Shown in pieces: positions 3,426 to 60,342 of a DNA stretch of 64,000 nucleotides. Within the stretch, counting starts at the first letter, position 1; every line of letters starts with the position of its first letter. Under the pieces are notes generated by a model, which did not search any database, was not told where the DNA came from, and worked only from the letters and a program-made list of their open reading frames with translations. The DNA is from a virus (taxonomy: Duplodnaviria; Heunggongvirae; Uroviricota; Caudoviricetes): IMG/VR virus record IMGVR_UViG_3300045049_000270; one strand, written 5' to 3'. The position numbers were made by a program, and so were the translations under genes.

Positions 3426-4190
3426 GTGAGCGTTTATCTTCGGCACATACCAATCAAAGACATCAGCGTGCCAGTACTGAATGTCAGTGCTGGTAATAAA
3501 AATGTCCTAAGTGTTCCAACGCAGCTTGGTTGTCCGGTCGGTTGTTCATTTTGCGTATCAACTACCAATAAATTTGTTCGTAATCTCACTGCTGATGAGA
3601 TTGTTGATTTGGTGGTCAAAAATGCACCAAATCACCCATTTGTTCTTTCATTTACTGGCGAGGGTGATGTTCTCTTTAACACCGAGAATGTGAGCAATGC
3701 TTTATCAACCCTCTACACTCTTAGCATACCGATCACATCAGTTCGTTATTCGATAAGTGGGGTTGCATCCCGCCGGATACGTTTTCTTGATACTACCACT
3801 TTCCCTGCTGAGTTACAGGTGTCGATGCACACTTTTAATCAGTCGATTCGTGATAAGATGATTCCAAAATCTGATCCGATTTATCGGATTTTGGAATCCG
3901 TATCCATGCATTACGCATCGTTCTCCAAAATTAGAATCAACTATGTATTGCGTGAAGGATTGAATGATACTCCTGGCGATATTACCCACCTTAAGCATTG
4001 GGGACATAATGATTGGGACTTCATTCTTAACCCATTCCTCACGCCTAACGGTGCTATCGTACATCCACGTGTAGATGACATAGCTATGGAAATGTTCTTT
4101 TCGGGTAGAAATGTCTATGTGTTTCGCAATGTAGGCGAAGACATCTGCGATAACGAGATTTACAATAACCTTACGTATCGCCAGCATTGA
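3426..4190 (+). CDS. radical SAM enzyme
   Basis: CxxxCxxC cluster motif in LGCPVGCSFCVST near the N-terminus; GTG start. Confidence 0.6.
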   Translation: MSVYLRHIPIKDISVPVLNVSAGNKNVLSVPTQLGCPVGCSFCVSTTNKFVRNLTADEIVDLVVKNAPNHPFVLSFTGEGDVLFNTENVSNALSTLYTLSIPITSVRYSISGVASRRIRFLDTTTFPAELQVSMHTFNQSIRDKMIPKSDPIYRILESVSMHYASFSKIRINYVLREGLNDTPGDITHLKHWGHNDWDFILNPFLTPNGAIVHPRVDDIAMEMFFSGRNVYVFRNVGEDICDNEIYNNLTYRQH

Positions 4191-10311: not shown

Positions 10312-11547
10312 ATGCGGATCGCGATTACCGGTAACATTGGCTGTGGAAAATCCACATTCACGAAACTATTGGTGAAACATCTTACACCAAATTACACTCA
10401 AGCAAGCATCGATGAGATGGTTCACGAGCTTTATAAGAACACCGAATTTGCTAAGGAGCTGAAGGAACAATTCAGAACGGATGATCGCAAGCAAATATCG
10501 GATATCGTATTCAACGACCCAGAGCAACGTAAATGGCTTGAAGATTTGGTGAAAACGCACATGCGGTTGCGAATGATAAAAATCGACAGTCAGAATCACA
10601 TCGTAGTTGAATTTCCGCTGTTGTTTGAAATGTGCAATAATGACAAATACGATTTCATCATCACGTGTATGTGCGACGATGAGACGCAAGAAAAACGTGT
10701 GACTGCACGTGATGGCTTCACTGCCGAAAAAATCGCAAAGATTCGTGGTGCGCAACTCAGTACTATTGTGAAGTCGGCAATGTCGGATGAAACAATTGAC
10801 ACTAATGTTTCGCTTGAAGAGCTTGAAACTGAAGCTAAACGCATTGCTGGTAACATTGCTCGAAAAGATCTACGTTTATTCTTCCAAAGCGCCTTTTACA
10901 AAAAAGAAAAGGAAGCTGGTGAATTGTTCGACAATGCGATGAAACAATATCACGGTTTTGATCGGCACTGGCATAATGCAGATCACCCACTTGCTATGTA
11001 TCGATGGTTTATGTCGAATCTTGACAAATTCAACTATCCTGGCATTGCCGGTATTGCGATCATCTATCATGATGTGGTCTACAGTACGTATAAGACTCTG
11101 TATCCACATAATGAATCTCAAAGCGTTAAGTTCATGATTGATCAATTCAAAGCAATTATGCCAGAAGCATTGCGATTTGAAATTGAAGATGGTATCCCAT
11201 CACTCGCAGTTGCTGCTGAATACATCATGAGTACGAAAACGCATTCGGCTTCTTCGCATTTCTTGAAAGCCAATCCTAAGTTGAAAAACGATTGTGAATT
11301 GTTTCTTGATGTGGACTTGATGATGTTGGGTGGAACTCCCGAGGAGGCTGAAGCATTTGATGACGCAGTATATCAGGAGTTCAAAAATGAGTATGAAATT
11401 CGAACATTTGCTAGAGGCCGGGTTTCTGTATTGAAGACATTTTTGCGTCGACCAAAAGTTTTTCAATCATCGCACTTTGCACATCTCGAAGATAATGCAC
11501 GTGCAAACTTGGACACACTTATCAAGAAATGGGAGCGTTGGGTCTAA
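10312..11547 (+). CDS. coaE: dephospho-CoA kinase (CoaE) fused to a C-terminal HD-like domain
   Basis: N-terminal ~190 aa aligns with CoaE: MRIAITGNIGCGKST (P-loop), FNDPEQRKWLEDLV, PLLFE...; C-terminus has H..H / HD / H / D pattern (HWHNADH...IIYHD). Confidence 0.7.
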   Translation: MRIAITGNIGCGKSTFTKLLVKHLTPNYTQASIDEMVHELYKNTEFAKELKEQFRTDDRKQISDIVFNDPEQRKWLEDLVKTHMRLRMIKIDSQNHIVVEFPLLFEMCNNDKYDFIITCMCDDETQEKRVTARDGFTAEKIAKIRGAQLSTIVKSAMSDETIDTNVSLEELETEAKRIAGNIARKDLRLFFQSAFYKKEKEAGELFDNAMKQYHGFDRHWHNADHPLAMYRWFMSNLDKFNYPGIAGIAIIYHDVVYSTYKTLYPHNESQSVKFMIDQFKAIMPEALRFEIEDGIPSLAVAAEYIMSTKTHSASSHFLKANPKLKNDCELFLDVDLMMLGGTPEEAEAFDDAVYQEFKNEYEIRTFARGRVSVLKTFLRRPKVFQSSHFAHLEDNARANLDTLIKKWERWV

Positions 11548-15755: not shown

Positions 15756-16865
15756 ATGGGCGGCCGACTTCATAGCCTTGAAGGCTTGCGCGGGTTTGCC
15801 GCTTTAATTGTTGTCTTCCTTCATGTTTATATGTCATTGCAAGCTGTACCAAATTCTGGTGCTGCCGCAAGTTTCTTTTCTTTTTCAAAGAACGGTTATT
15901 TGGCTGTTGATTTGTTCTTCGTATTGAGTGGTTTTGTAATATATGATTCATATAAATCGAAGCTGAGAAATAATTCTGATTTTGGTGCTTTTATATTGCG
16001 TCGAATTGGGAGATTGTGGCCAGCATTCATGATTGCGAATTTCATTTATTTTTTCTTACAATATCTCGCAAGCTTTCATGAATATCGATTACCAAGCATT
16101 ATTCAACTATTAGGTGTTGCGACGTTTCTTCAAGGTTTGGCTATCACGAATGTAATTGGTATTGCAGTAAGTTGGAGTGCCAGTGTTGAATTTTGGATCT
16201 ACTGTATATTCGCACTACTCTGTATTTCCCTACATGGAAAAATTAGAACGGCTGCGTTTATCGCATTTTCTCTTTTTGGTTATTCGATTGCTTTATGGCA
16301 GTCGATAATTGTTAGTTCATGTTTGACTAAGGGCGGATGTTTTGAACAAACCTATTACTTTGGATGGGGACGCGGTCTAGTTGGCTTCTTCATTGGTGCT
16401 CTGCTTGCCGAATATCGCAATCATCGATTTGTGATCAGTCTTTGTAAACCAAATATACAATTAGCGATATTTACCGGTACATTACTCTTTATTCTAATCG
16501 CTGATAGCATTCCAGGCTTAGCATGTGTTGCGCCATTATTGTTTGCATTATTCATAGCGACACTAACTATGAATAACGGACCAGTGACACTTTTACTCAA
16601 TAGTCGCTTTGCTCAATATTTGGGTAGAATTTCTTATTCATTGTATTTGAGCCATGCTGCCATAGTTATGGTTTTTGCTGCATTCATTGCTGTAACGACA
16701 GGTACTATTGAACGTGTAACCGCTGCTTCACTGTATATCACATTATCGATTGTCCTGGCGCATATTCTCAATATGCGAGTAGAGACACCAATACGTAAAC
16801 GAATCAATTCTTGGGTTGATTCAAAGTTCAATCAGAAAAGTTTGATAGTCACTCCAAGTGAATGA
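15756..16865 (+). CDS. acyltransferase family 3 (OafA/OatA-like) integral membrane protein
   Basis: N-terminal LEGLRGFAALIVVFLHV signature; about 10 predicted TM helices. Confidence 0.7.
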   Translation: MGGRLHSLEGLRGFAALIVVFLHVYMSLQAVPNSGAAASFFSFSKNGYLAVDLFFVLSGFVIYDSYKSKLRNNSDFGAFILRRIGRLWPAFMIANFIYFFLQYLASFHEYRLPSIIQLLGVATFLQGLAITNVIGIAVSWSASVEFWIYCIFALLCISLHGKIRTAAFIAFSLFGYSIALWQSIIVSSCLTKGGCFEQTYYFGWGRGLVGFFIGALLAEYRNHRFVISLCKPNIQLAIFTGTLLFILIADSIPGLACVAPLLFALFIATLTMNNGPVTLLLNSRFAQYLGRISYSLYLSHAAIVMVFAAFIAVTTGTIERVTAASLYITLSIVLAHILNMRVETPIRKRINSWVDSKFNQKSLIVTPSE

Positions 16866-29708: not shown

Positions 29709-30011
29709 ATGAGCGACATTCAAGAACAGAAGTGGGCACCTCATGAGAAGGTATTGGTGCTTTACTACAATGCCAAAACATCTGGTAAATTCAACAAAAG
29801 GTTTGCAAATGAACTAAATCAACTTCCTCTGCCTGAATGCCAGGAGGCTATTCAAGCAGCATTCAATGTGCTTGGTTTTTCACGTGACATCGAAATGATC
29901 ACTGATGATCGAACACTGTTTGGCTGGGTGATGGCTACTGCTCTTGGTGCAAGCTGGAATCCTGATGCAAACAAATACCAAACGCGAGAAGAACGTCTCG
30001 ATTATTTGTGA
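29709..30011 (+). CDS. hypothetical protein
   Basis: ATG 3 nt after the upstream stop. Confidence 0.45.
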   Translation: MSDIQEQKWAPHEKVLVLYYNAKTSGKFNKRFANELNQLPLPECQEAIQAAFNVLGFSRDIEMITDDRTLFGWVMATALGASWNPDANKYQTREERLDYL

Positions 30012-30018
30012 AAAAATG

Positions 30019-30078
30019 TTGATTCGACCACCAAGTGAACTTACCATCTGAGCATGGTAAGCAAACACAAGGAGAGTT
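30019..30078 (+). promoter_or_regulatory. family-P promoter cassette
   Basis: TTGATT-N17-TACCAT; CTGAGCATGGTAAGCAAACACAAGGAG. Confidence 0.55.
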
Positions 30079-30081
30079 TAA

Positions 30082-30480
30082 ATGGGTCTCAAAGCATTCG
30101 ATTACTACAAAACAGTGCCGATGGCTTACCCGCGCCGTTCAGATTACACGAAGGTTTTCGTATACAGAAAGGGTAAAACGATCGTAAATGGCATCAAACG
30201 CAGTGAAATAGACGGAAATGCGATTAAGGAATATCGCGATACTGGTTGCCTTATCGAAGAAACCTTCGATAAGGATGCCTTCTTCGTAGATACTCGTGCT
30301 TACAGTAATCTGTGTAGTGAACTGGAAAAAGAATTCAAGCGTGATCTGTTCGATCAGCATGGAGTGACAGGCCACCCCAAAGCAGAACGCGCATTTCAAC
30401 TTGCTTGGGATTACGGCCATAGCTCTGGATTCCAAGAAGTAGCGAACTATTTCGACGATCTTGCTGATCTGCTGAAATAA
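30082..30480 (+). CDS. hypothetical protein (132 aa)
   Basis: family-P promoter at 30019; AAGGAG RBS; terminator at 30497. Confidence 0.5.
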   Translation: MGLKAFDYYKTVPMAYPRRSDYTKVFVYRKGKTIVNGIKRSEIDGNAIKEYRDTGCLIEETFDKDAFFVDTRAYSNLCSELEKEFKRDLFDQHGVTGHPKAERAFQLAWDYGHSSGFQEVANYFDDLADLLK

Positions 30481-30496
30481 GCGACAAATGCAATAC

Positions 30497-30535
30497 ACTG
30501 AAGGCCTCACAATTGTGAGGCCTTCAGTCATTTGA
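30497..30535 (+). terminator. rho-independent terminator
   Basis: ACTGAAGGCCTCACAATTGTGAGGCCTTCAGT then CATTTG. Confidence 0.6.
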
Positions 30536-30538
30536 TAC

Positions 30539-30596
30539 TTGATGTCATCACCAAATGAACTTACACTAAGAGCATGGTGAATCAAAACAGGAGGAC
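30539..30596 (+). promoter_or_regulatory. family-P promoter cassette
   Basis: TTGATG-N17-TACACT; CACCAAATGAACT; AGAGCATGGTGAATCAAAACAGGAGG. Confidence 0.5.
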
Positions 30597-30599
30597 AAG

Positions 30600-30791
30600 A
30601 TGACTAAGAGGATTATGGAAGCAGTCAAGCGTAATCAGCTTTACAAATCGGCTGACGGCTATGTGCTCGAGCGAAACCTTGAAGACGATTGGATCCTTCG
30701 TGATGCCAATGGCAAGGAACTAGATCGTGGTGGTTGGCGTAACGATATAGCAGAGCGGCATAACCTAGTACTGAAACCCTATTGCATTTAA
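30600..30791 (+). CDS. hypothetical protein (63 aa)
   Basis: family-P promoter at 30539; AGGAGG RBS. Confidence 0.4.
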   Translation: MTKRIMEAVKRNQLYKSADGYVLERNLEDDWILRDANGKELDRGGWRNDIAERHNLVLKPYCI

Positions 30792-30794
30792 TGC

Positions 30795-30850
30795 TTGCAT
30801 TATGAACCAAATGAATGCAAAATAGGAACATGGTAAACGACAAGGAGCAA
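30795..30850 (+). promoter_or_regulatory. family-P promoter cassette
   Basis: TTGCAT-N17-CAAAAT; AACCAAATGAATG; GGAACATGGTAAACGACAAGGAG. Confidence 0.55.
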
Positions 30851-30853
30851 GCA

Positions 30854-31504
30854 ATGGCACAAACTAATGTAGAACTGTTCGTCGTTGGCGCAGAAATCGA
30901 TCTTAAAGATGCTAGTCAAGCAAAGAAATTTGGTCGTTCGCGCATCATCAACATCGAACGTGCTCCTCGCAGTGCAAATACCACATTCCACTTCGAATCA
31001 GTTGCAACTGGCAAAGCGTGGCACTGGAAATTCCGTGATTACCTGGATGGTGCTTGCAATCGACTTGCGACATATGCCAGTGTTGTAAAAAAAGCTACAG
31101 CTGAAACTGTGAAGAAAGCTGCTGACAAACAACGTGATCTGTACGAGCGTGATTTTGCATCATTCAAAAACGTGATTTTGGAACAGAACGTCCAACCCGG
31201 CGACACGGTTACGGTCACAACTCCTGACAAGAGCTACGACTTCAACGTGTGCGAGATTGATTTCGGCAAAAGTCGATTGAGAGGGTTCAATGTCAACACA
31301 TCGTACACCAGCGTCGGATCACGTATGGGGTGGGTAAGCTTCAAACACCCGGACGTTAAAATCAAGATGAAGAAAAAGAACGCATTCAACGTTAGCTTGG
31401 ATGCTTGCTATAACGCGCACAAGGCTGCGGCCGCTGAAGTTGGTGAAAAGCGGGCTAATACACGTGCTCGCCGAAAGCAGCTACGAGATCGTTTTGGATG
31501 GTAA
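30854..31504 (+). CDS. hypothetical protein (216 aa)
   Basis: family-P promoter at 30795; AAGGAG RBS; terminator at 31515. Confidence 0.5.
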   Translation: MAQTNVELFVVGAEIDLKDASQAKKFGRSRIINIERAPRSANTTFHFESVATGKAWHWKFRDYLDGACNRLATYASVVKKATAETVKKAADKQRDLYERDFASFKNVILEQNVQPGDTVTVTTPDKSYDFNVCEIDFGKSRLRGFNVNTSYTSVGSRMGWVSFKHPDVKIKMKKKNAFNVSLDACYNAHKAAAAEVGEKRANTRARRKQLRDRFGW

Positions 31505-31514
31505 GCGAAAGTTT

Positions 31515-31543
31515 TGAGGAAAAACGGTTCCGTTTTTCCTCAT
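31515..31543 (+). terminator. rho-independent terminator
   Basis: GAGGAAAAACGG-TTC-CGTTTTTCCTC. Confidence 0.65.
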
Positions 31544-31586
31544 CATCATAGTATAATTGGCGCACCAAACAACCTATGGGGGTTAA

Positions 31587-32417
31587 ATGAAACGTACTAT
31601 TGGCTTTATTGTTGCACTCGCTATTGGTGCAATGTTGATGACGAGTGGTTGCACTCGCATTGAATCAGGCAATGTCGGCATTGTCAAACATTGGGGCGGC
31701 AAAATCGATCCTGAAGTGTTGGAACCTGGTTTCCATTTCATGATTTTCGATTCGCTGCTCGCAGAAGTTGATGCAACTCCTACACGAGTGGCAGTGAATA
31801 ATCTCACACCGAAAGATGCTGACGGCGTACCAGTTGACGATCTGGATATCGTTGTAACATATAAACTCAATGCACCATATGTATCAAAGTTCTATACTGG
31901 AACACATGAACTGGATACGTACAAAGATGGTAGTGGGCGTGAATACACTACTATTGGGCTTGAAGCTATCAAGCAATTGGCTCCTGGTGTTATGCAAACC
32001 GCAACGGAAACCGATGACCCTGTTGCTATTGCGAAGAATACGCAATTGTATGATGCGAAAGCTTCTGCTGAATTCAAACGTGTGCTTGATGCACGATATC
32101 CAAATGCGTTCGATTCAGTATCAGTGCTCACATTACATTTCAAATTGCCCGATTCTATTCAACAACAAGTGAATGCAGTAGCGGCATTTAATGCTGAAGC
32201 AGAACGCAACAAGGCTGAATTGGCGTTGATTGCACAACGCAAGGAACTTGCGAGCAAGAAAGCAACCGTAGACGCTGAGGCGCTTCGTGCCGCTGCTGAT
32301 GCTGCCCACCTCACACCCGAAGAGGTGATTGCGTGGCGCAACGCCAATGCCGCTCAGACCCAAGCTGAAAATATCGGTGGTGTTGCAAAAGTGATCGATG
32401 TAAGTACCAAGAAATAA
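31587..32417 (+). CDS. SPFH/band-7 domain lipoprotein
   Basis: lipobox LMTSGC; SPFH-like SGNVGIVKHWGG...LEPGFHF...DLDIVVTYKLN; Ala-rich coiled-coil C-terminus. Confidence 0.6.
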   Translation: MKRTIGFIVALAIGAMLMTSGCTRIESGNVGIVKHWGGKIDPEVLEPGFHFMIFDSLLAEVDATPTRVAVNNLTPKDADGVPVDDLDIVVTYKLNAPYVSKFYTGTHELDTYKDGSGREYTTIGLEAIKQLAPGVMQTATETDDPVAIAKNTQLYDAKASAEFKRVLDARYPNAFDSVSVLTLHFKLPDSIQQQVNAVAAFNAEAERNKAELALIAQRKELASKKATVDAEALRAAADAAHLTPEEVIAWRNANAAQTQAENIGGVAKVIDVSTKK

Positions 32418-32432
32418 CGTAGTAGTCCTGTT

Positions 32433-32470
32433 AGTGGTAGGGTGAGGATCCTCACCCTACCACTCATTTG
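32433..32470 (+). terminator. rho-independent terminator
   Basis: GTGGTAGGGTGAGGATCCTCACCCTACCAC then TCATTTG. Confidence 0.6.
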
Positions 32471-32474
32471 GTCG

Positions 32475-32535
32475 TTGACAATTCATTCATATGAATGCAG
32501 AATACGATACATGGTAGACACAACAGGAGAATAGT
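32475..32535 (+). promoter_or_regulatory. family-P promoter cassette
   Basis: TTGACA-N17-CAGAAT; TTCATTCATATGAATG palindrome; GATACATGGTAGACACAACAGGAG. Confidence 0.55.
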
Positions 32536-32537
32536 TC

Positions 32538-32741
32538 ATGCAATTCACAGACAATGCTGTTGTAAAAATTGCTCGAGACACGAAGAAAGACTATGGTTTG
32601 ATGCTTGGTCGGACGGGTACTATCAAGATGAAATGCATGCGTAAGAACGGTGTTGATTATTACCAAGTTCGCATTGGTAGAGTGCCTTTTATCGATGTGA
32701 TCGAAGTTGCAGCATGTGACTTGGATCCGGCAACACCATAA
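32538..32741 (+). CDS. hypothetical protein (67 aa)
   Basis: family-P promoter at 32475; AGGAGAATAG RBS. Confidence 0.4.
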   Translation: MQFTDNAVVKIARDTKKDYGLMLGRTGTIKMKCMRKNGVDYYQVRIGRVPFIDVIEVAACDLDPATP

Positions 32742-32746
32742 AACAG

Positions 32747-32800
32747 TTGACACCATGTTCAGGTGAATGTATCATTTGAACATGGTAAAGAACAGGAGAT
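32747..32800 (+). promoter_or_regulatory. family-P promoter cassette (consensus copy)
   Basis: TTGACA-N17-TATCAT; CCATGTTCAGGTGAATG; TTGAACATGGTAAAGAACAGGAG. Confidence 0.65.
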
Positions 32801-32804
32801 AAAA

Positions 32805-33902
32805 ATGGTTATTTGGAAGGATATTGCTGTTCCCATCATCGAAAAACAGGTTCACATTCGTGCGCTTACTGGCGCCAAGTCTCGCCGTCGTTTCTCGTTT
32901 ATCAAGACTTTTGGCGATGTTCCTGTTGCCAACATTAACGAAATCACTGGCAAGCTTGAGCCTGTCGTCAACAATCGTGGTCGTGCTTATGCGGCACGCC
33001 TTCTGGAGCTCGACGCACAATTCCATTTTGTTGAGCAGCGTCCTCCCGCGCTGCGCGATGACGGCCCGGCGATCGCGCCTCACGGCCCTACATACCTCCC
33101 CGTCGTCGCGATTGAACGCGTCACTCACATCGGCGAGATGAACCCCGCCGCGCGCGACAGTACCGGGCAAAGCCTCGAAGGACATGCGCTGTCGGTCTCC
33201 ACGACACCCCACGCATGGGAGGAGATCGCCACCATCGGCGGTCGGCCGTGGTTTGAGCTGACGAACCACGATGCGAACTTCGTCGACGTCCTGGCACTGC
33301 TGGCCGACGAAACCCGGACAGCCGCATTACGCTCGTGGGCGCAGTCCGAAGGTCTGCTCCGACCGGAGCAACAATACCGCGCCTGGTATCTCGACACCGA
33401 TAGCGACGAATGGCACTACTTCGTCGCCGACTCGCGCGAAGCCGCATGGAGCGAGATCGATACCGGCGAATTCGATTCGCCCGACGATGCGCCTGGGCCC
33501 GACGGGAAACCGTGCATCGAACCGATCTGCCAATGGGTTGGCACGCCCGCCCTCGAATCGGCCGTCGGTCGAGTCGGTTTGAATCAGACCGAGAGCACGG
33601 ATATGGCCCTGATGATTTTCGTCGAGCGTCATTGTCCCGACATCGATGGCCTGTGGTGGACGGAGCAATACGATCCGCTGGCGCTCTCGGCGCCGCGCGG
33701 CGGAATACTTCCTGATCGGCTTGCTCGCTGGACGGCTACTCCGGTTTCCCGGCACCGGGTCGATGACGAAATCGCTTTGCCAGAAGCGAGCGAGATGCCA
33801 GTCCATCAGCCCGCGTTGAAGCCCGCTCATGAAGCGCAGCCAGTCGACGCAACGGCAAAGGATGCGCCGCATTCCCCACGTCGGCCCCCGCGGGCGCGAT
33901 GA
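32805..33902 (+). CDS. hypothetical protein encoded largely within a high-GC island
   Basis: family-P promoter at 32747; ORF becomes ~65% GC from ~32.9 kb; varied residue composition suggests real coding. Confidence 0.45.
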   Translation: MVIWKDIAVPIIEKQVHIRALTGAKSRRRFSFIKTFGDVPVANINEITGKLEPVVNNRGRAYAARLLELDAQFHFVEQRPPALRDDGPAIAPHGPTYLPVVAIERVTHIGEMNPAARDSTGQSLEGHALSVSTTPHAWEEIATIGGRPWFELTNHDANFVDVLALLADETRTAALRSWAQSEGLLRPEQQYRAWYLDTDSDEWHYFVADSREAAWSEIDTGEFDSPDDAPGPDGKPCIEPICQWVGTPALESAVGRVGLNQTESTDMALMIFVERHCPDIDGLWWTEQYDPLALSAPRGGILPDRLARWTATPVSRHRVDDEIALPEASEMPVHQPALKPAHEAQPVDATAKDAPHSPRRPPRAR

Positions 33903-34176
33903 CCTGATGCCTCGGCGCGGCAATGCCGTGCCGCGCCAGTTCGGCCACGCTGCCCGGCCCGACCACGCCGATCGGCACGGAGTCTGGCCAAGCGAAACCG
34001 GGGACTGCGCCGAGCGCACGTTCGATCGCGTTCGGCGAAACGAAGACGACGAGCGCATAACGCTCCAGCGAGGCGAAGGGAAAGAAACAACATGACAAGC
34101 GAACAGCGGAAAAAGAACGTGAGGGCAAGCGTGAAGTTGAGCGCGCAATGAAAACGAACAAGAGGGATATCTGAAT

Positions 34177-34410
34177 ATGCGAGCACGTGAACATCGTGGT
34201 GGATTGGCCGAATCACTGGCTACGGTCTTCAATTTCGAAACGAAGGAAGACTTGTTGACGGAAATTAACGAACGCATGGGGACACATTTTTGCCATGACG
34301 ACATTGCATTCCTTCATCAAGGAAAAGATGAACGCATTGGTTGGGATACTTACTTGGTGAGTGTGCGTGGCTATGGTGTGTTCGGATATACAGATGGGAT
34401 ACCAAAATAA
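34177..34410 (+). CDS. hypothetical protein (77 aa)
   Basis: AGAGGG RBS then ATG; stop overlaps the tpt1 start (ATAATG). Confidence 0.4.
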   Translation: MRAREHRGGLAESLATVFNFETKEDLLTEINERMGTHFCHDDIAFLHQGKDERIGWDTYLVSVRGYGVFGYTDGIPK

Positions 34411-34958
34411 TGAATGAAGACTTCAATAAAAAGTACAAAAAGCATAGTATTTGGTTGTCGTACTTGCTGCGACATGGTGCGAAAGAACAAAAAGTCAAAA
34501 TTGACAAACAAGCATTCATCCTAGTAGACGATGTGATAGCGGCGGGCAAGAAAGCAGGTTATGAATTTGATCTTGAAATCCTGAAAGGAATTGTTGCTAA
34601 CGATCAGAAGGGCCGTTATTCATTCAATGAAGACTTCACCAAAATTCGGGCAAACCAAGGACATTCCATTAATGTTGATCCTGGGTTGCAAAAAGCAGTG
34701 CCGCCAGTGATCTTGTATCACGGCACTTCAAGCGAAGCTTGGGAGATCATCAAGAAGAAAGGTCTCAATAAGATGACACGCACTCACGTTCATCTCACTG
34801 CTGACATTGAACTGGCTCGGAAACGGTTTCGAAAAACTGTAGTAATCGAAGTTGACTCTAAAGCTATGCTGGCTGATAAAGTTGATTTCTACAAGTCAGC
34901 AAATGATGTGTGGCTGGTTGATGCCGTAGATGCAAAGTATCTGAAGCTTGTGGAATGA
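34410..34958 (+). CDS. kptA: RNA 2'-phosphotransferase (Tpt1/KptA)
   Basis: near-collinear with E. coli KptA: WLSYLLRHG, GRYSF...IRANQGHS, VILYHGTSSEAWEIIKKKGL, RTHVHLTAD, NDVWLVD. Confidence 0.8.
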   Translation: MNEDFNKKYKKHSIWLSYLLRHGAKEQKVKIDKQAFILVDDVIAAGKKAGYEFDLEILKGIVANDQKGRYSFNEDFTKIRANQGHSINVDPGLQKAVPPVILYHGTSSEAWEIIKKKGLNKMTRTHVHLTADIELARKRFRKTVVIEVDSKAMLADKVDFYKSANDVWLVDAVDAKYLKLVE

Positions 34959-43307: not shown

Positions 43308-43382
43308 GCGTCTGTAGCTCAGTGGAAGAGCAGGGCCCTTACAAGGCCAAGGTCGGGAGTTCAACCCTCTCCAGACGCACCA
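43308..43382 (+). tRNA. tRNA-Val (anticodon UAC), CCA encoded
   Basis: hand-folded cloverleaf: acceptor GCGTCTG/CAGACGC, D-arm GCTC-AGTGGAA-GAGC, anticodon loop CTTACAA, T-arm GGGAG-TTCAACC-CTCTC, then A-CCA. Confidence 0.7.
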
Positions 43383-43423: not shown

Positions 43424-43500
43424 CTCCGGTTAGTATAGTCTGGTTAGTATACGTGGTTTGGGACCATGGGACGCAAGTTCGAATCTTGCACTGGAGACCA
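43424..43500 (+). tRNA. tRNA-like gene, possibly tRNA-Pro (UGG); D-arm non-canonical
   Basis: acceptor CTCCGGT/ACTGGAG, anticodon arm CGTGG-TTTGGGA-CCATG, T-arm GCAAG-TTCGAAT-CTTGC, A-CCA end; D-region holds a GGTTAGTATA direct repeat I could not fold cleanly. Confidence 0.4.
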
Positions 43501-59373: not shown

Positions 59374-59481
59374 ACGTTGTTAAAGCAATCCCAGATGAAA
59401 TAAATATTTCAAAACAAAATTGGCACGGGCATTGTATAATAGATGTCTGTGCCATTTGCCAATTATTTTCTGGAGATTGTC

Positions 59482-60342
59482 GTGCAACATATCGAAGTTA
59501 CTTTAGCAGCAATCGGCGAAGGCGCCCAGATCATGGAGTGCAAATCAGGGCCTCTTGCACTCCGAGAACATATTTCAAAGCTTCCTATTCCCCTTCAATG
59601 GGGATCTTTTATAACCAGTGATGCTTCTTTGCTGGAACACGGTAAATTGGCGGTGGTCGAAGAATATATGCCAAGACTTGCCAATGCCGTACATTCTACA
59701 CTCTCAAAAGAACGTTTCCCTCTCGTAATTGGCGGTGATCATTCCTGTGCAATTGGCACTTGGAGTGCAATAGCTAATTTCTATCGAACAATGGGTGATA
59801 TTGGTCTAATCTGGATTGATGCTCATCTTGACAGTCATACTCCACAAACATCTGAAAGCGGAGCTCCTCATGGTATGCCTCTAGCTTGCCTTCTAGGATA
59901 TGGCAGCCGCAATCTCACCACCATACACGATGTTGTTCGAAAGCTACGTCCTCAAAATGTAGTGGTGATCGGAGCACGGAGCAGTGAAAAGGGTGAAGAA
60001 GATCTACTAGAAAGCCTTGGCGTTCGCGTTATGCGAATTGAAGAAGTGCATGACCGTGGTTTCGATGTTTGCTTAGACGAAGCTATTGAAATAGTTTCAA
60101 AAGAAACTGTTGGTTATGGCATCACATTTGACATTGATAGTCTGGATCCTATTGATGCACCAGGAGTTGGTTCACCAGAAGATGGTGGGTTGTGGCTATC
60201 TGATGTAGTAAGGACATTTGAAAGTATGAACAAACGCAAGTTGATTGGCTTCGAATTGGTCGAATATAATCCAGAGCGTGATTCTGGCGACCTTCGCACT
60301 GCCAAAGCTTGTGTTGCTATTCTTGATGCAATTTTGCCATAA
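59482..60342 (+). CDS. arginase/agmatinase-family ureohydrolase
   Basis: binuclear-Mn motifs GGDHS, DAHLDSHT, DIDSLDP; GGAG RBS then GTG. Confidence 0.65.
   Translation: MQHIEVTLAAIGEGAQIMECKSGPLALREHISKLPIPLQWGSFITSDASLLEHGKLAVVEEYMPRLANAVHSTLSKERFPLVIGGDHSCAIGTWSAIANFYRTMGDIGLIWIDAHLDSHTPQTSESGAPHGMPLACLLGYGSRNLTTIHDVVRKLRPQNVVVIGARSSEKGEEDLLESLGVRVMRIEEVHDRGFDVCLDEAIEIVSKETVGYGITFDIDSLDPIDAPGVGSPEDGGLWLSDVVRTFESMNKRKLIGFELVEYNPERDSGDLRTAKACVAILDAILP

Follow-up and report, generated by a model that had tools for sequence, protein, structure and literature searches.

A composite high-GC island that probably replaced phage DNA and gave rise to an in-frame gene fusion in an uncultivated huge phage

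In the 64,000-nucleotide (nt) stretch of IMG/VR virus record IMGVR_UViG_3300045049_000270 that we analyzed (hereafter the window), a block of DNA much richer in guanine plus cytosine (GC) than its surroundings lies between ordinary phage genes, and an open reading frame (ORF) of 365 amino acids (aa) that starts in phage sequence runs into it. The product of this ORF was 100% identical to a Joint Genome Institute (JGI) protein on a 523,572-bp contig, and the window belongs to the genome of an uncultivated huge phage (~523 kb, ~44% GC). Two relatives covered the locus, namely L005 (IMGVR_UViG_3300037418_001546, 523,836 bp, from IMG/VR), whose neighboring proteins are 80–82% identical to those of the window, and L006, a more distant viral contig of 360,227 bp. 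An earlier note on this DNA had singled out the GC-rich block as a likely recent capture from a high-GC donor, bacterial or another phage, which might have created a chimeric gene. The features at the locus are as follows.

32747–32787, plus strand: promoter-like element with TTGACA and TATCAT 17 nt apart (32747–32775) and an inverted repeat, CATGTTCA/TGAACATG
32805–33902, plus strand: chimeric ORF of 365 aa, made up of a phage N-terminus, a captured gene and an antisense-hemD tail
32805–32998, plus strand: phage 5′ part of the chimeric ORF (codons 1–64), orthologue of a 77–82-aa gene in related phages
32999–34075, no strand assigned: foreign high-GC island of 1,077 bp, in two pieces that differ in origin and orientation
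33072–33809, plus strand: conserved domain of the captured gene, from an unannotated family, possibly with an ADP-ribosyltransferase (ART)/RES-like fold
33864–34077, minus strand: hemD fragment, an internal piece with both ends missing, non-functional
34073–34171, plus strand: smpB remnant, the last 32 codons plus stop
34177–34410, plus strand: first conserved phage gene past the island, where collinearity with L005 resumes (phrog_8785 match, E = 6e-22)

The composition of the window changed abruptly at both ends of the island. Sliding GC over 200 nt was 0.43–0.47 at 32700–32999, rose to 0.62–0.70 at 33000–34099 and fell back to 0.39–0.48 past 34100, and among 1-kb bins 33001–34000 alone reached 0.648, the next highest bin in the 64 kb being 0.532. 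For 32999–34075 as a whole, GC was 0.650, a z-score of ~6.6 against all other 1075-nt windows across the 64 kb (mean 0.436, standard deviation 0.032, maximum 0.541). GC at third codon positions (GC3) stood at 0.70 for the captured gene and at 0.815 for the hemD fragment, compared with 0.37–0.47 in the neighboring phage genes. The jump to about 65% GC between AT-rich flanks described in the earlier note is real, but the limits given there, 32870–34110, began ~130 nt too early and ended ~35 nt too late: comparison with the relatives placed the left border at 32998/32999 and the right border at about 34073–34078. The many alternative-frame ORFs reported inside the block appear in the ORF listing, and the longest of them, 33327–34304 on the minus strand, had no Pfam match. 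No other source was found for a 42-nt stretch of moderate GC at 32999–33040.

The left junction could be read from the way the relatives end the small gene at this position. By blastn, window 32741–32998 paired with L005 5938–6194, the next match began at 34177 (L005 7357), and there was none between. The L005 gene (MVIWQDIAV...) encodes 82 aa, and residues 1–65 of its product aligned by tblastn with window 32805–32999 at 84.6% identity. The L005 protein ends in ...VVNNRGRAYAARRRNAYRGDAYRNRNVKD and a stop, and the L006 version in ...VVNNRGRAYAARKRQMYRENKKREAV and a stop; past ...NNRGRAYAAR, both relatives thus have a short basic tail before the stop, whereas the window reads ...VVNNRGRAYAAR followed directly by LLELDAQFHF... 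and then 300 more codons. This comparison sets the left junction at 32998/32999, after codon 64. The proposal of a foreign insert holds up, since both L005 and L006 lack the island at this locus and their small gene ends normally. With its deviant composition, its absence from relatives and its content from another kind of genome, the island carries the marks of horizontal acquisition.

On the right, the window rejoined the phage order at 34177–34398, which matched L005 7357–7578 at 76.6% by blastn. In L005, the interval between the small gene and the conserved 77-aa gene is occupied by a 69-aa ORF, a full copy of smpB, a gene for ribosome rescue, and a 122-aa ORF. Neither of these two ORFs was found in the window, and smpB survives there only as a 3′ remnant, which matched Pfam SmpB (PF01668) at positions 116–142 of 143 (E = 3.3e-5) and was 72% identical to residues 119–150 of L005 SmpB (E = 2e-8), encoded in full at L005 6473–6928 (Pfam E = 4e-57). 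The window contained no full-length SmpB (about 150 aa) and no further copy, and no transfer-messenger RNA (tmRNA) was found within its 64 kb. A frame-0 ORF after the island (MTSEQRKK...) had been considered as the 3′ end of the interrupted small gene and was dropped; frame 2 is the SmpB tail. The event was more than a plain insertion: the island took the place of phage DNA, and the greater part of the phage smpB was lost. Huge phage genomes have been reported to carry tmRNA and SmpB (Al-Shayeb et al., 2020; PMC7162821). With its full SmpB, the relative L005 resembles the phages described there, while the window phage differs from them in that the capture has destroyed its smpB, with only codons 119–150 left behind.

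At the right junction, the window reads GCGAAGGG, hemD reads GCGAAC and smpB reads GCTAAGGG, with a few bases of GCnAAG microhomology. We found no direct or inverted repeats flanking the island, no target-site duplication, no terminal inverted repeats and no terminator-like site at the island's end, and Pfam scans of the plus-strand ORF and of two minus-strand ORFs matched no transposase family. The island accordingly does not look like a transposon or insertion sequence, and the anatomy of its junctions points to replacement by illegitimate recombination as the mechanism, not to transposition or site-specific integration.

The right-hand piece of the island comes from hemD. The earlier note had seen a weak resemblance to uroporphyrinogen-III synthase on the minus strand (33736–34194) and had distrusted it, but the similarity is genuine by Pfam, tblastn and blastn alike. 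The piece matched Pfam HEM4 (PF02602) at positions 36–92 of 231 (E = 4.9e-6), with a score of 26.3 bits, which narrowly misses the cut-off of 27.5 owing to the partial length of the piece. In a scan of one genome per bacterial species, which covered 72 hemD loci, the best tblastn match was a Trinickia sp. metagenome-assembled genome (91% over 65 aa), followed by Trinickia sp. NRRL B-1857 (85%), an uncultured betaproteobacterium (83%) and T. diaoshuihuensis (83%), then by Paraburkholderia and Burkholderia (58–75%), and by Caballeronia, Herbaspirillum and Rhodocyclales (48–59%). The best blastn match was 83.6% over 214 nt, and similarity stopped at 33864 and 34077. The piece resembles HemD of Trinickia, Paraburkholderia and Burkholderia in that the ranking of matches follows Burkholderiaceae taxonomy; unlike the functional proteins of these genera, it is antisense to local transcription, does not encode a full two-domain protein and has no start of its own. 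Since it is antisense and lacks both ends, it is a scar and not a gene.

Against Trinickia hemD, the fragment had a ratio of non-synonymous to synonymous substitution rates (dN/dS) of 0.095, and because the differences are mostly synonymous, they would have arisen in functional bacterial genes before the capture; inside the phage, the fragment has probably had little time for decay. The 91% aa identity to Trinickia hemD agrees with the proposed high-GC bacterial donor, and on sequence grounds the source would be, at least ultimately, an unsampled Trinickia-like member of the Burkholderiaceae, a high-GC soil bacterium. Such a bacterium is probably also the host of the phage. A metagenome scan with a hemD 24-mer returned nine contigs, none above 75% nt identity and the window's own contig not among them. 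For the neighboring Band_7 protein, the sole isolated-phage match covering most of its length was from a Burkholderia jumbo phage, at 28% identity.

The suggestion of a chimeric gene holds, and the ORF falls into three parts: codons 1–64 are phage, codons 65 to about 353 come from the donor, and the last ~12 codons and the stop are antisense hemD, similarity to which begins at 33864. An AGGAG ribosome-binding site lies 8 nt ahead of the ATG at 32805, and the promoter-like element at 32747 matches 11 of the 12 sigma-70 consensus positions. This element belongs to a repeat family, TTGACAnCATGTTCAnnTGAAnnTAtCATtTGAACATGGTA, with 16 copies in the window, all on the plus strand, where 0.05 would be expected by chance; the copies span 4437–61769 (for example, 9109, 22195, 32747, 45624 and 61091). 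The earlier description of an ORF at 32805–33902 that starts behind a promoter of this family and runs into the GC-rich block is therefore accurate: the ORF is listed and the repeat family is real. Copies also occur in L005, and the same element stands ahead of the orthologous gene there. The CATGTTCA/TGAACATG inverted repeat brackets the −10 box, which suggests a putative regulator-binding site. Further upstream, a perfect 32-nt palindrome (AGTGGTAGGGTGAGGA/TCCTCACCCTACCACT) at 32433–32464 immediately follows the Band_7 gene, ahead of the next promoter-like site; it probably forms a terminator hairpin, although a simple terminator scan had no such entry.

Reading of the sequence revealed no in-frame ATG, GTG or TTG between the left junction and the invariant histidine H108, so that the complete domain can be translated only from the phage start at 32805. 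In the contig index there was no entry for a 379-aa form with a GTG start (P0001), while the 365-aa form and its cluster members were found. Every residue that the captured family keeps invariant, or nearly so, is intact in the chimeric ORF. From the sequence, this is compatible with a working fusion, and equally with an event too recent for decay.

The captured gene itself occupies about 32999–33863 on the plus strand. Twelve relatives, 30–55% identical, aligned to query residues about 87–326, and their N-termini start just ahead of a conserved LPV..V.H.GT strand. An exhaustive profile search recovered 1,369 cluster representatives at 50% identity, typically of 210–260 aa. The conserved motifs of the domain are HxG, SxEG, LSVS, GxWW and SAPRGG, and H, S, E and R residues are among those conserved. 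The family had no match in Pfam, PHROGs, NCBIfam, PADLOC or PDB sequence profiles; a Pfam DUF6630 match (E = 0.016, 26 residues) was set aside as chance. The five nearest homologues lie on contigs of 58–66% GC, and the neighbors of homologues include PcfJ, RadC, phage-lysozyme-like and type I CRISPR-Cas genes, ankyrin arrays and RNA ligase, or stand on unannotated 300-kb contigs. A PHROG scan of the neighbors of the closest homologue, on a 300-kb contig of 58% GC, was uninformative, so that this contig may be phage or plasmid. More distant members of the family occur in PLSDB on 0.5–1.3-Mb plasmids of Pseudomonas (including pMPPla107), Variovorax, Bosea, Rhizobium, Acetobacter and Aneurinibacillus, annotated as "hypothetical protein" throughout. 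Family members are also found fused to GNAT, ankyrin and ParB-like domains. One homologue, on positions 1–8000 of contig L082 (logan:SRR34347871_3138; 108 kb, 66% GC, also with an RNA ligase), directly follows a tandem array of at least 10 ankyrin-repeat protein genes, an unusual array of paralogues.

The domain was modeled with a predicted local distance difference test (pLDDT) score of 95.5. In a structure comparison, this model scored highest against MbcT (7.4), Res (6.8), VPA0770 (6.3) and diphtheria toxin (6.1), followed by ParT (5.7), NatT (5.5), AcrF11 (5.4), exotoxin A (4.9) and then PARPs, with only about half of the captured domain aligned. We read this as a candidate ART/RES-like core inside a larger novel domain. 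Several features set the captured domain apart from ART-fold proteins such as the RES toxins MbcT, Res, ParT and NatT, the diphtheria-toxin-like ARTs and AcrIF11: sequence identity is 6–10%, the core that aligns is about half as large as the domain, there is no profile match to the ART, RES or Tpt1 families, the family's motifs could not be placed on the R-S-E, H-Y-E or R-E-S triads of ARTs, and no adjacent antitoxin-like partner is evident. Foldseek searches of PDB and BFVD returned nothing significant for the domain, and when the family was compared by hhalign with the Tpt1 protein of the window, which has an ART-superfamily fold, the probability was 0.3%, and hence there was no relation.

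The same structure was recovered from independent assemblies. A protein cluster at 90% identity had four members, which came from the window contig, from a 218,697-bp contig (L084, JGI sample 3300044693) and from two ~1.2-kb Logan contigs (SRR23978796 and SRR23978794), and the four proteins vary at one residue, C251Y. L084 and the window share the same order over 13 kb, and their right junction and smpB remnant are identical. Within the island, it differs from the window only at 33407, at 33514 and by a 6-nt loop inversion at 33923–28, so that two haplotypes can be told apart; one Logan contig is an exact match to the window haplotype, the other to that of L084. The differences within the ORF amount to one synonymous and one non-synonymous change. 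The earlier note had called for assembly chimerism to be excluded, and the presence of the same junctions in two haplotypes, each in a JGI and a Logan assembly, makes such an artefact very unlikely.

With regard to timing, the unameliorated composition points to a capture that was probably recent, which is what had been proposed from the GC content, and the dN/dS of the hemD fragment agrees. Going by the sequences compared, the capture would be later than the split from the ~75%-identical relative and earlier than the split of the two haplotypes. The 6-nt loop inversion that separates the haplotypes lies inside the hemD scar, within 33917–33934; it is exact (ATGCCG vs. CGGCAT), is flanked by the inverted repeats GCGGCA/TGCCGC, and looks like a quasi-palindrome template-switch mutation. 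Over 30000–32500, the window and L084 are about 20% divergent (35–68 differences per 250 nt), with less than 1% divergence on both sides; the block has sharp limits, is either recombinant or hypervariable, and contains the Band_7/SPFH lipoprotein gene at 31587–32417.

Genes elsewhere in the window are small, mostly on the plus strand and of auxiliary function (CoaE-like, acyltransferase, arginase family, radical SAM, Tpt1/KptA). In a megablast search against 50,697 phage records, the island and the 24-kb stretch around it had no match, and the exact left-junction 27-mer had none in IMG/VR. The small auxiliary genes, together with the lack of close isolated phage DNA in GenBank, mark the window as an accessory-gene region of an uncultivated huge phage. 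The genes of auxiliary metabolic type encode a radical SAM protein, a 411-aa protein with a dephospho-CoA-kinase-like N-terminal domain, a membrane acyltransferase_3 and an arginase/agmatinase-family protein (E = 2e-56). Right beside the island there is a second difference in gene content: a Tpt1/KptA RNA 2′-phosphotransferase gene (Pfam E = 5e-43), also present in haplotype L084, is missing at the same position in L005, where the equivalents of window 34398 and 34965 are adjacent. The coordinates of these genes and of two adjacent tRNA genes are given below.

3426–4190, 10312–11547, 15756–16865 and 59443–60342, plus strand: the four auxiliary metabolic-type genes
34410–34958, plus strand: Tpt1/KptA RNA 2′-phosphotransferase gene
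43308–43382, plus strand: tRNA Val(TAC)
43424–43500, plus strand: tRNA Pro(TGG), adjacent to tRNA Val(TAC)

Taken as a whole, the locus is best explained by composite foreign high-GC DNA that replaced phage DNA by illegitimate recombination and gave an in-frame fusion, an explanation that we consider likely. On this account, a 1,077-bp foreign composite would have taken the place of roughly 0.65–1.1 kb of phage DNA, and the phage would have lost the 3′ end of the small gene, the 69-aa ORF, smpB up to about codon 118 and possibly the 122-aa ORF. The foreign pieces would be a gene of a large uncharacterised family typical of megaplasmids and other big mobile elements and an inverted internal fragment of hemD, a housekeeping gene. 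With the left junction in frame, the captured domain, which came without a start of its own, would be transcribed and translated from the phage promoter, the ribosome-binding site and the first 64 codons to yield the 365-aa fusion. We infer that the fusion protein is made and active, and that it may be an NAD+-using ART-type enzyme in host takeover or counter-defence.

Several points weigh against this interpretation. The haplotypes are too alike for a test of selection on the fusion. The junctions are known from assembled contigs and not from reads, and the Logan runs may share raw data with JGI. Among species-representative genomes, a collection of 5.8 billion proteins and JGI metagenome contigs, no donor closer than 84% nt for hemD or 55% aa for the captured gene was found. 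The join between the captured gene and hemD is unexplained, and the order of events is not fixed by the data. Finally, the host was deduced from a single 214-nt fragment.

Two alternatives would do away with the capture altogether, and we regard both as highly improbable. The abrupt jump in composition, in a sequence assembled from a metagenome, might reflect bacterial reads misjoined into a phage contig, but both junctions return to collinear phage positions, the left one preserves the frame in which the captured family is truly read, and the same structure recurs in L084, with 6 nt differences and with right junction and smpB remnant unchanged, as well as in Logan assemblies that match each haplotype exactly. 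It is just as hard to believe that the GC-rich segment is ancestral to the phage group and was lost from the relatives. There are only two relatives at the locus, and the region does vary between them, which leaves some room for such a history; yet they share a normal 3′ end of the small gene, the GC3 of the segment (0.70–0.82) is far from the ~0.4 of the phage, and a doubly truncated antisense hemD next to a truncated smpB that is intact in a relative indicates replacement in the lineage of the window.

The other two alternatives accept the replacement and concern its source and its consequence; each is credible, though we would not bet on either. The direct donor may have been a mobile element of the same cell (a megaplasmid or large phage of the Burkholderiaceae host) that already carried the gene–hemD join, instead of the chromosome. 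The company the family keeps is in favor of this, with PcfJ, RadC, phage lysozyme, ankyrin arrays and RNA ligase on 300-kb contigs and with 0.5–1.3-Mb plasmids, as are the GC3 of the gene (0.70), which is below that of the hemD piece (0.815), and the presence of the family within 4 kb of none of the 72 hemD loci; however, no element with the gene–hemD junction was found in the protein collection or the JGI metagenome contigs, and two separate illegitimate joins in the phage fit the data equally well. The chimeric ORF may, on the other hand, be a functionless passenger, the deletion having been selected or tolerated and the fusion being inactive or not made. Junk hemD shows that non-functional DNA came along, the native N-terminus of the captured protein, and probably its C-terminal end too, has been replaced, long ORFs persist by chance in high-GC DNA, and the divergence between haplotypes is too small to show purifying selection. 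Set against this are the frame kept across the junction, the intact invariant and nearly invariant family residues, the strong phage promoter and ribosome-binding site directly upstream, the confident domain model and the persistence of the island in two haplotypes.

Replacement of phage DNA by the foreign composite, as preferred here, has well-known parallels. Phage morons and mosaic gene replacement by illegitimate recombination are established concepts; morons of the classical type arrive between genes, equipped with a promoter and a terminator of their own. Like morons and mosaic replacements, the island is a discrete block of deviant composition between conserved phage genes that is absent from close relatives, and like mosaic replacements its junctions are free of the hallmarks of site-specific recombination or transposition. 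It is nevertheless not a classical moron, since it replaces DNA, breaks two phage genes, lacks both a promoter and a terminator and would be expressed through a translational fusion. The event is thus of a known kind, a textbook-type mosaic gene replacement, and it is unusually well documented because its scars are fresh. No concept is changed by these findings, and the cargo family is the only potentially new element.

That family is large and unannotated, and with its confident model and possible ART-like fold it is a target for biochemistry. Phage T4 Alt, ModA and ModB are functional analogues among ADP-ribosyltransferases. The boldest version, in which the captured gene represents a new and widespread clade of NAD+-using ART/RES-like enzymes confined to very large extrachromosomal elements, namely megaplasmids and huge phages, and was recruited as a promoter-driven fusion for host takeover or counter-defence, and in which the hemD scar is a direct link to the host, strikes us as unlikely to hold as a whole. 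The scar nonetheless offers a physical hint, of a kind seldom available, as to which host an uncultivated ~520-kb phage infects. If the hint is true, the GC content of this 523-kb phage would lie 20 points under the host's; other jumbo phages, such as phiKZ, are known to fall far short of their hosts in GC.

For the biology of these phages, the locus implies that at least one lineage in nature can dispense with the SmpB encoded by the phage. It also catches the mechanism in the act, with the junctions, the lost genes and the hemD junk still visible, and it suggests that accessory genes of huge phages may come and go through illegitimate recombination of the microhomology type, which is able to create expressed fusions.

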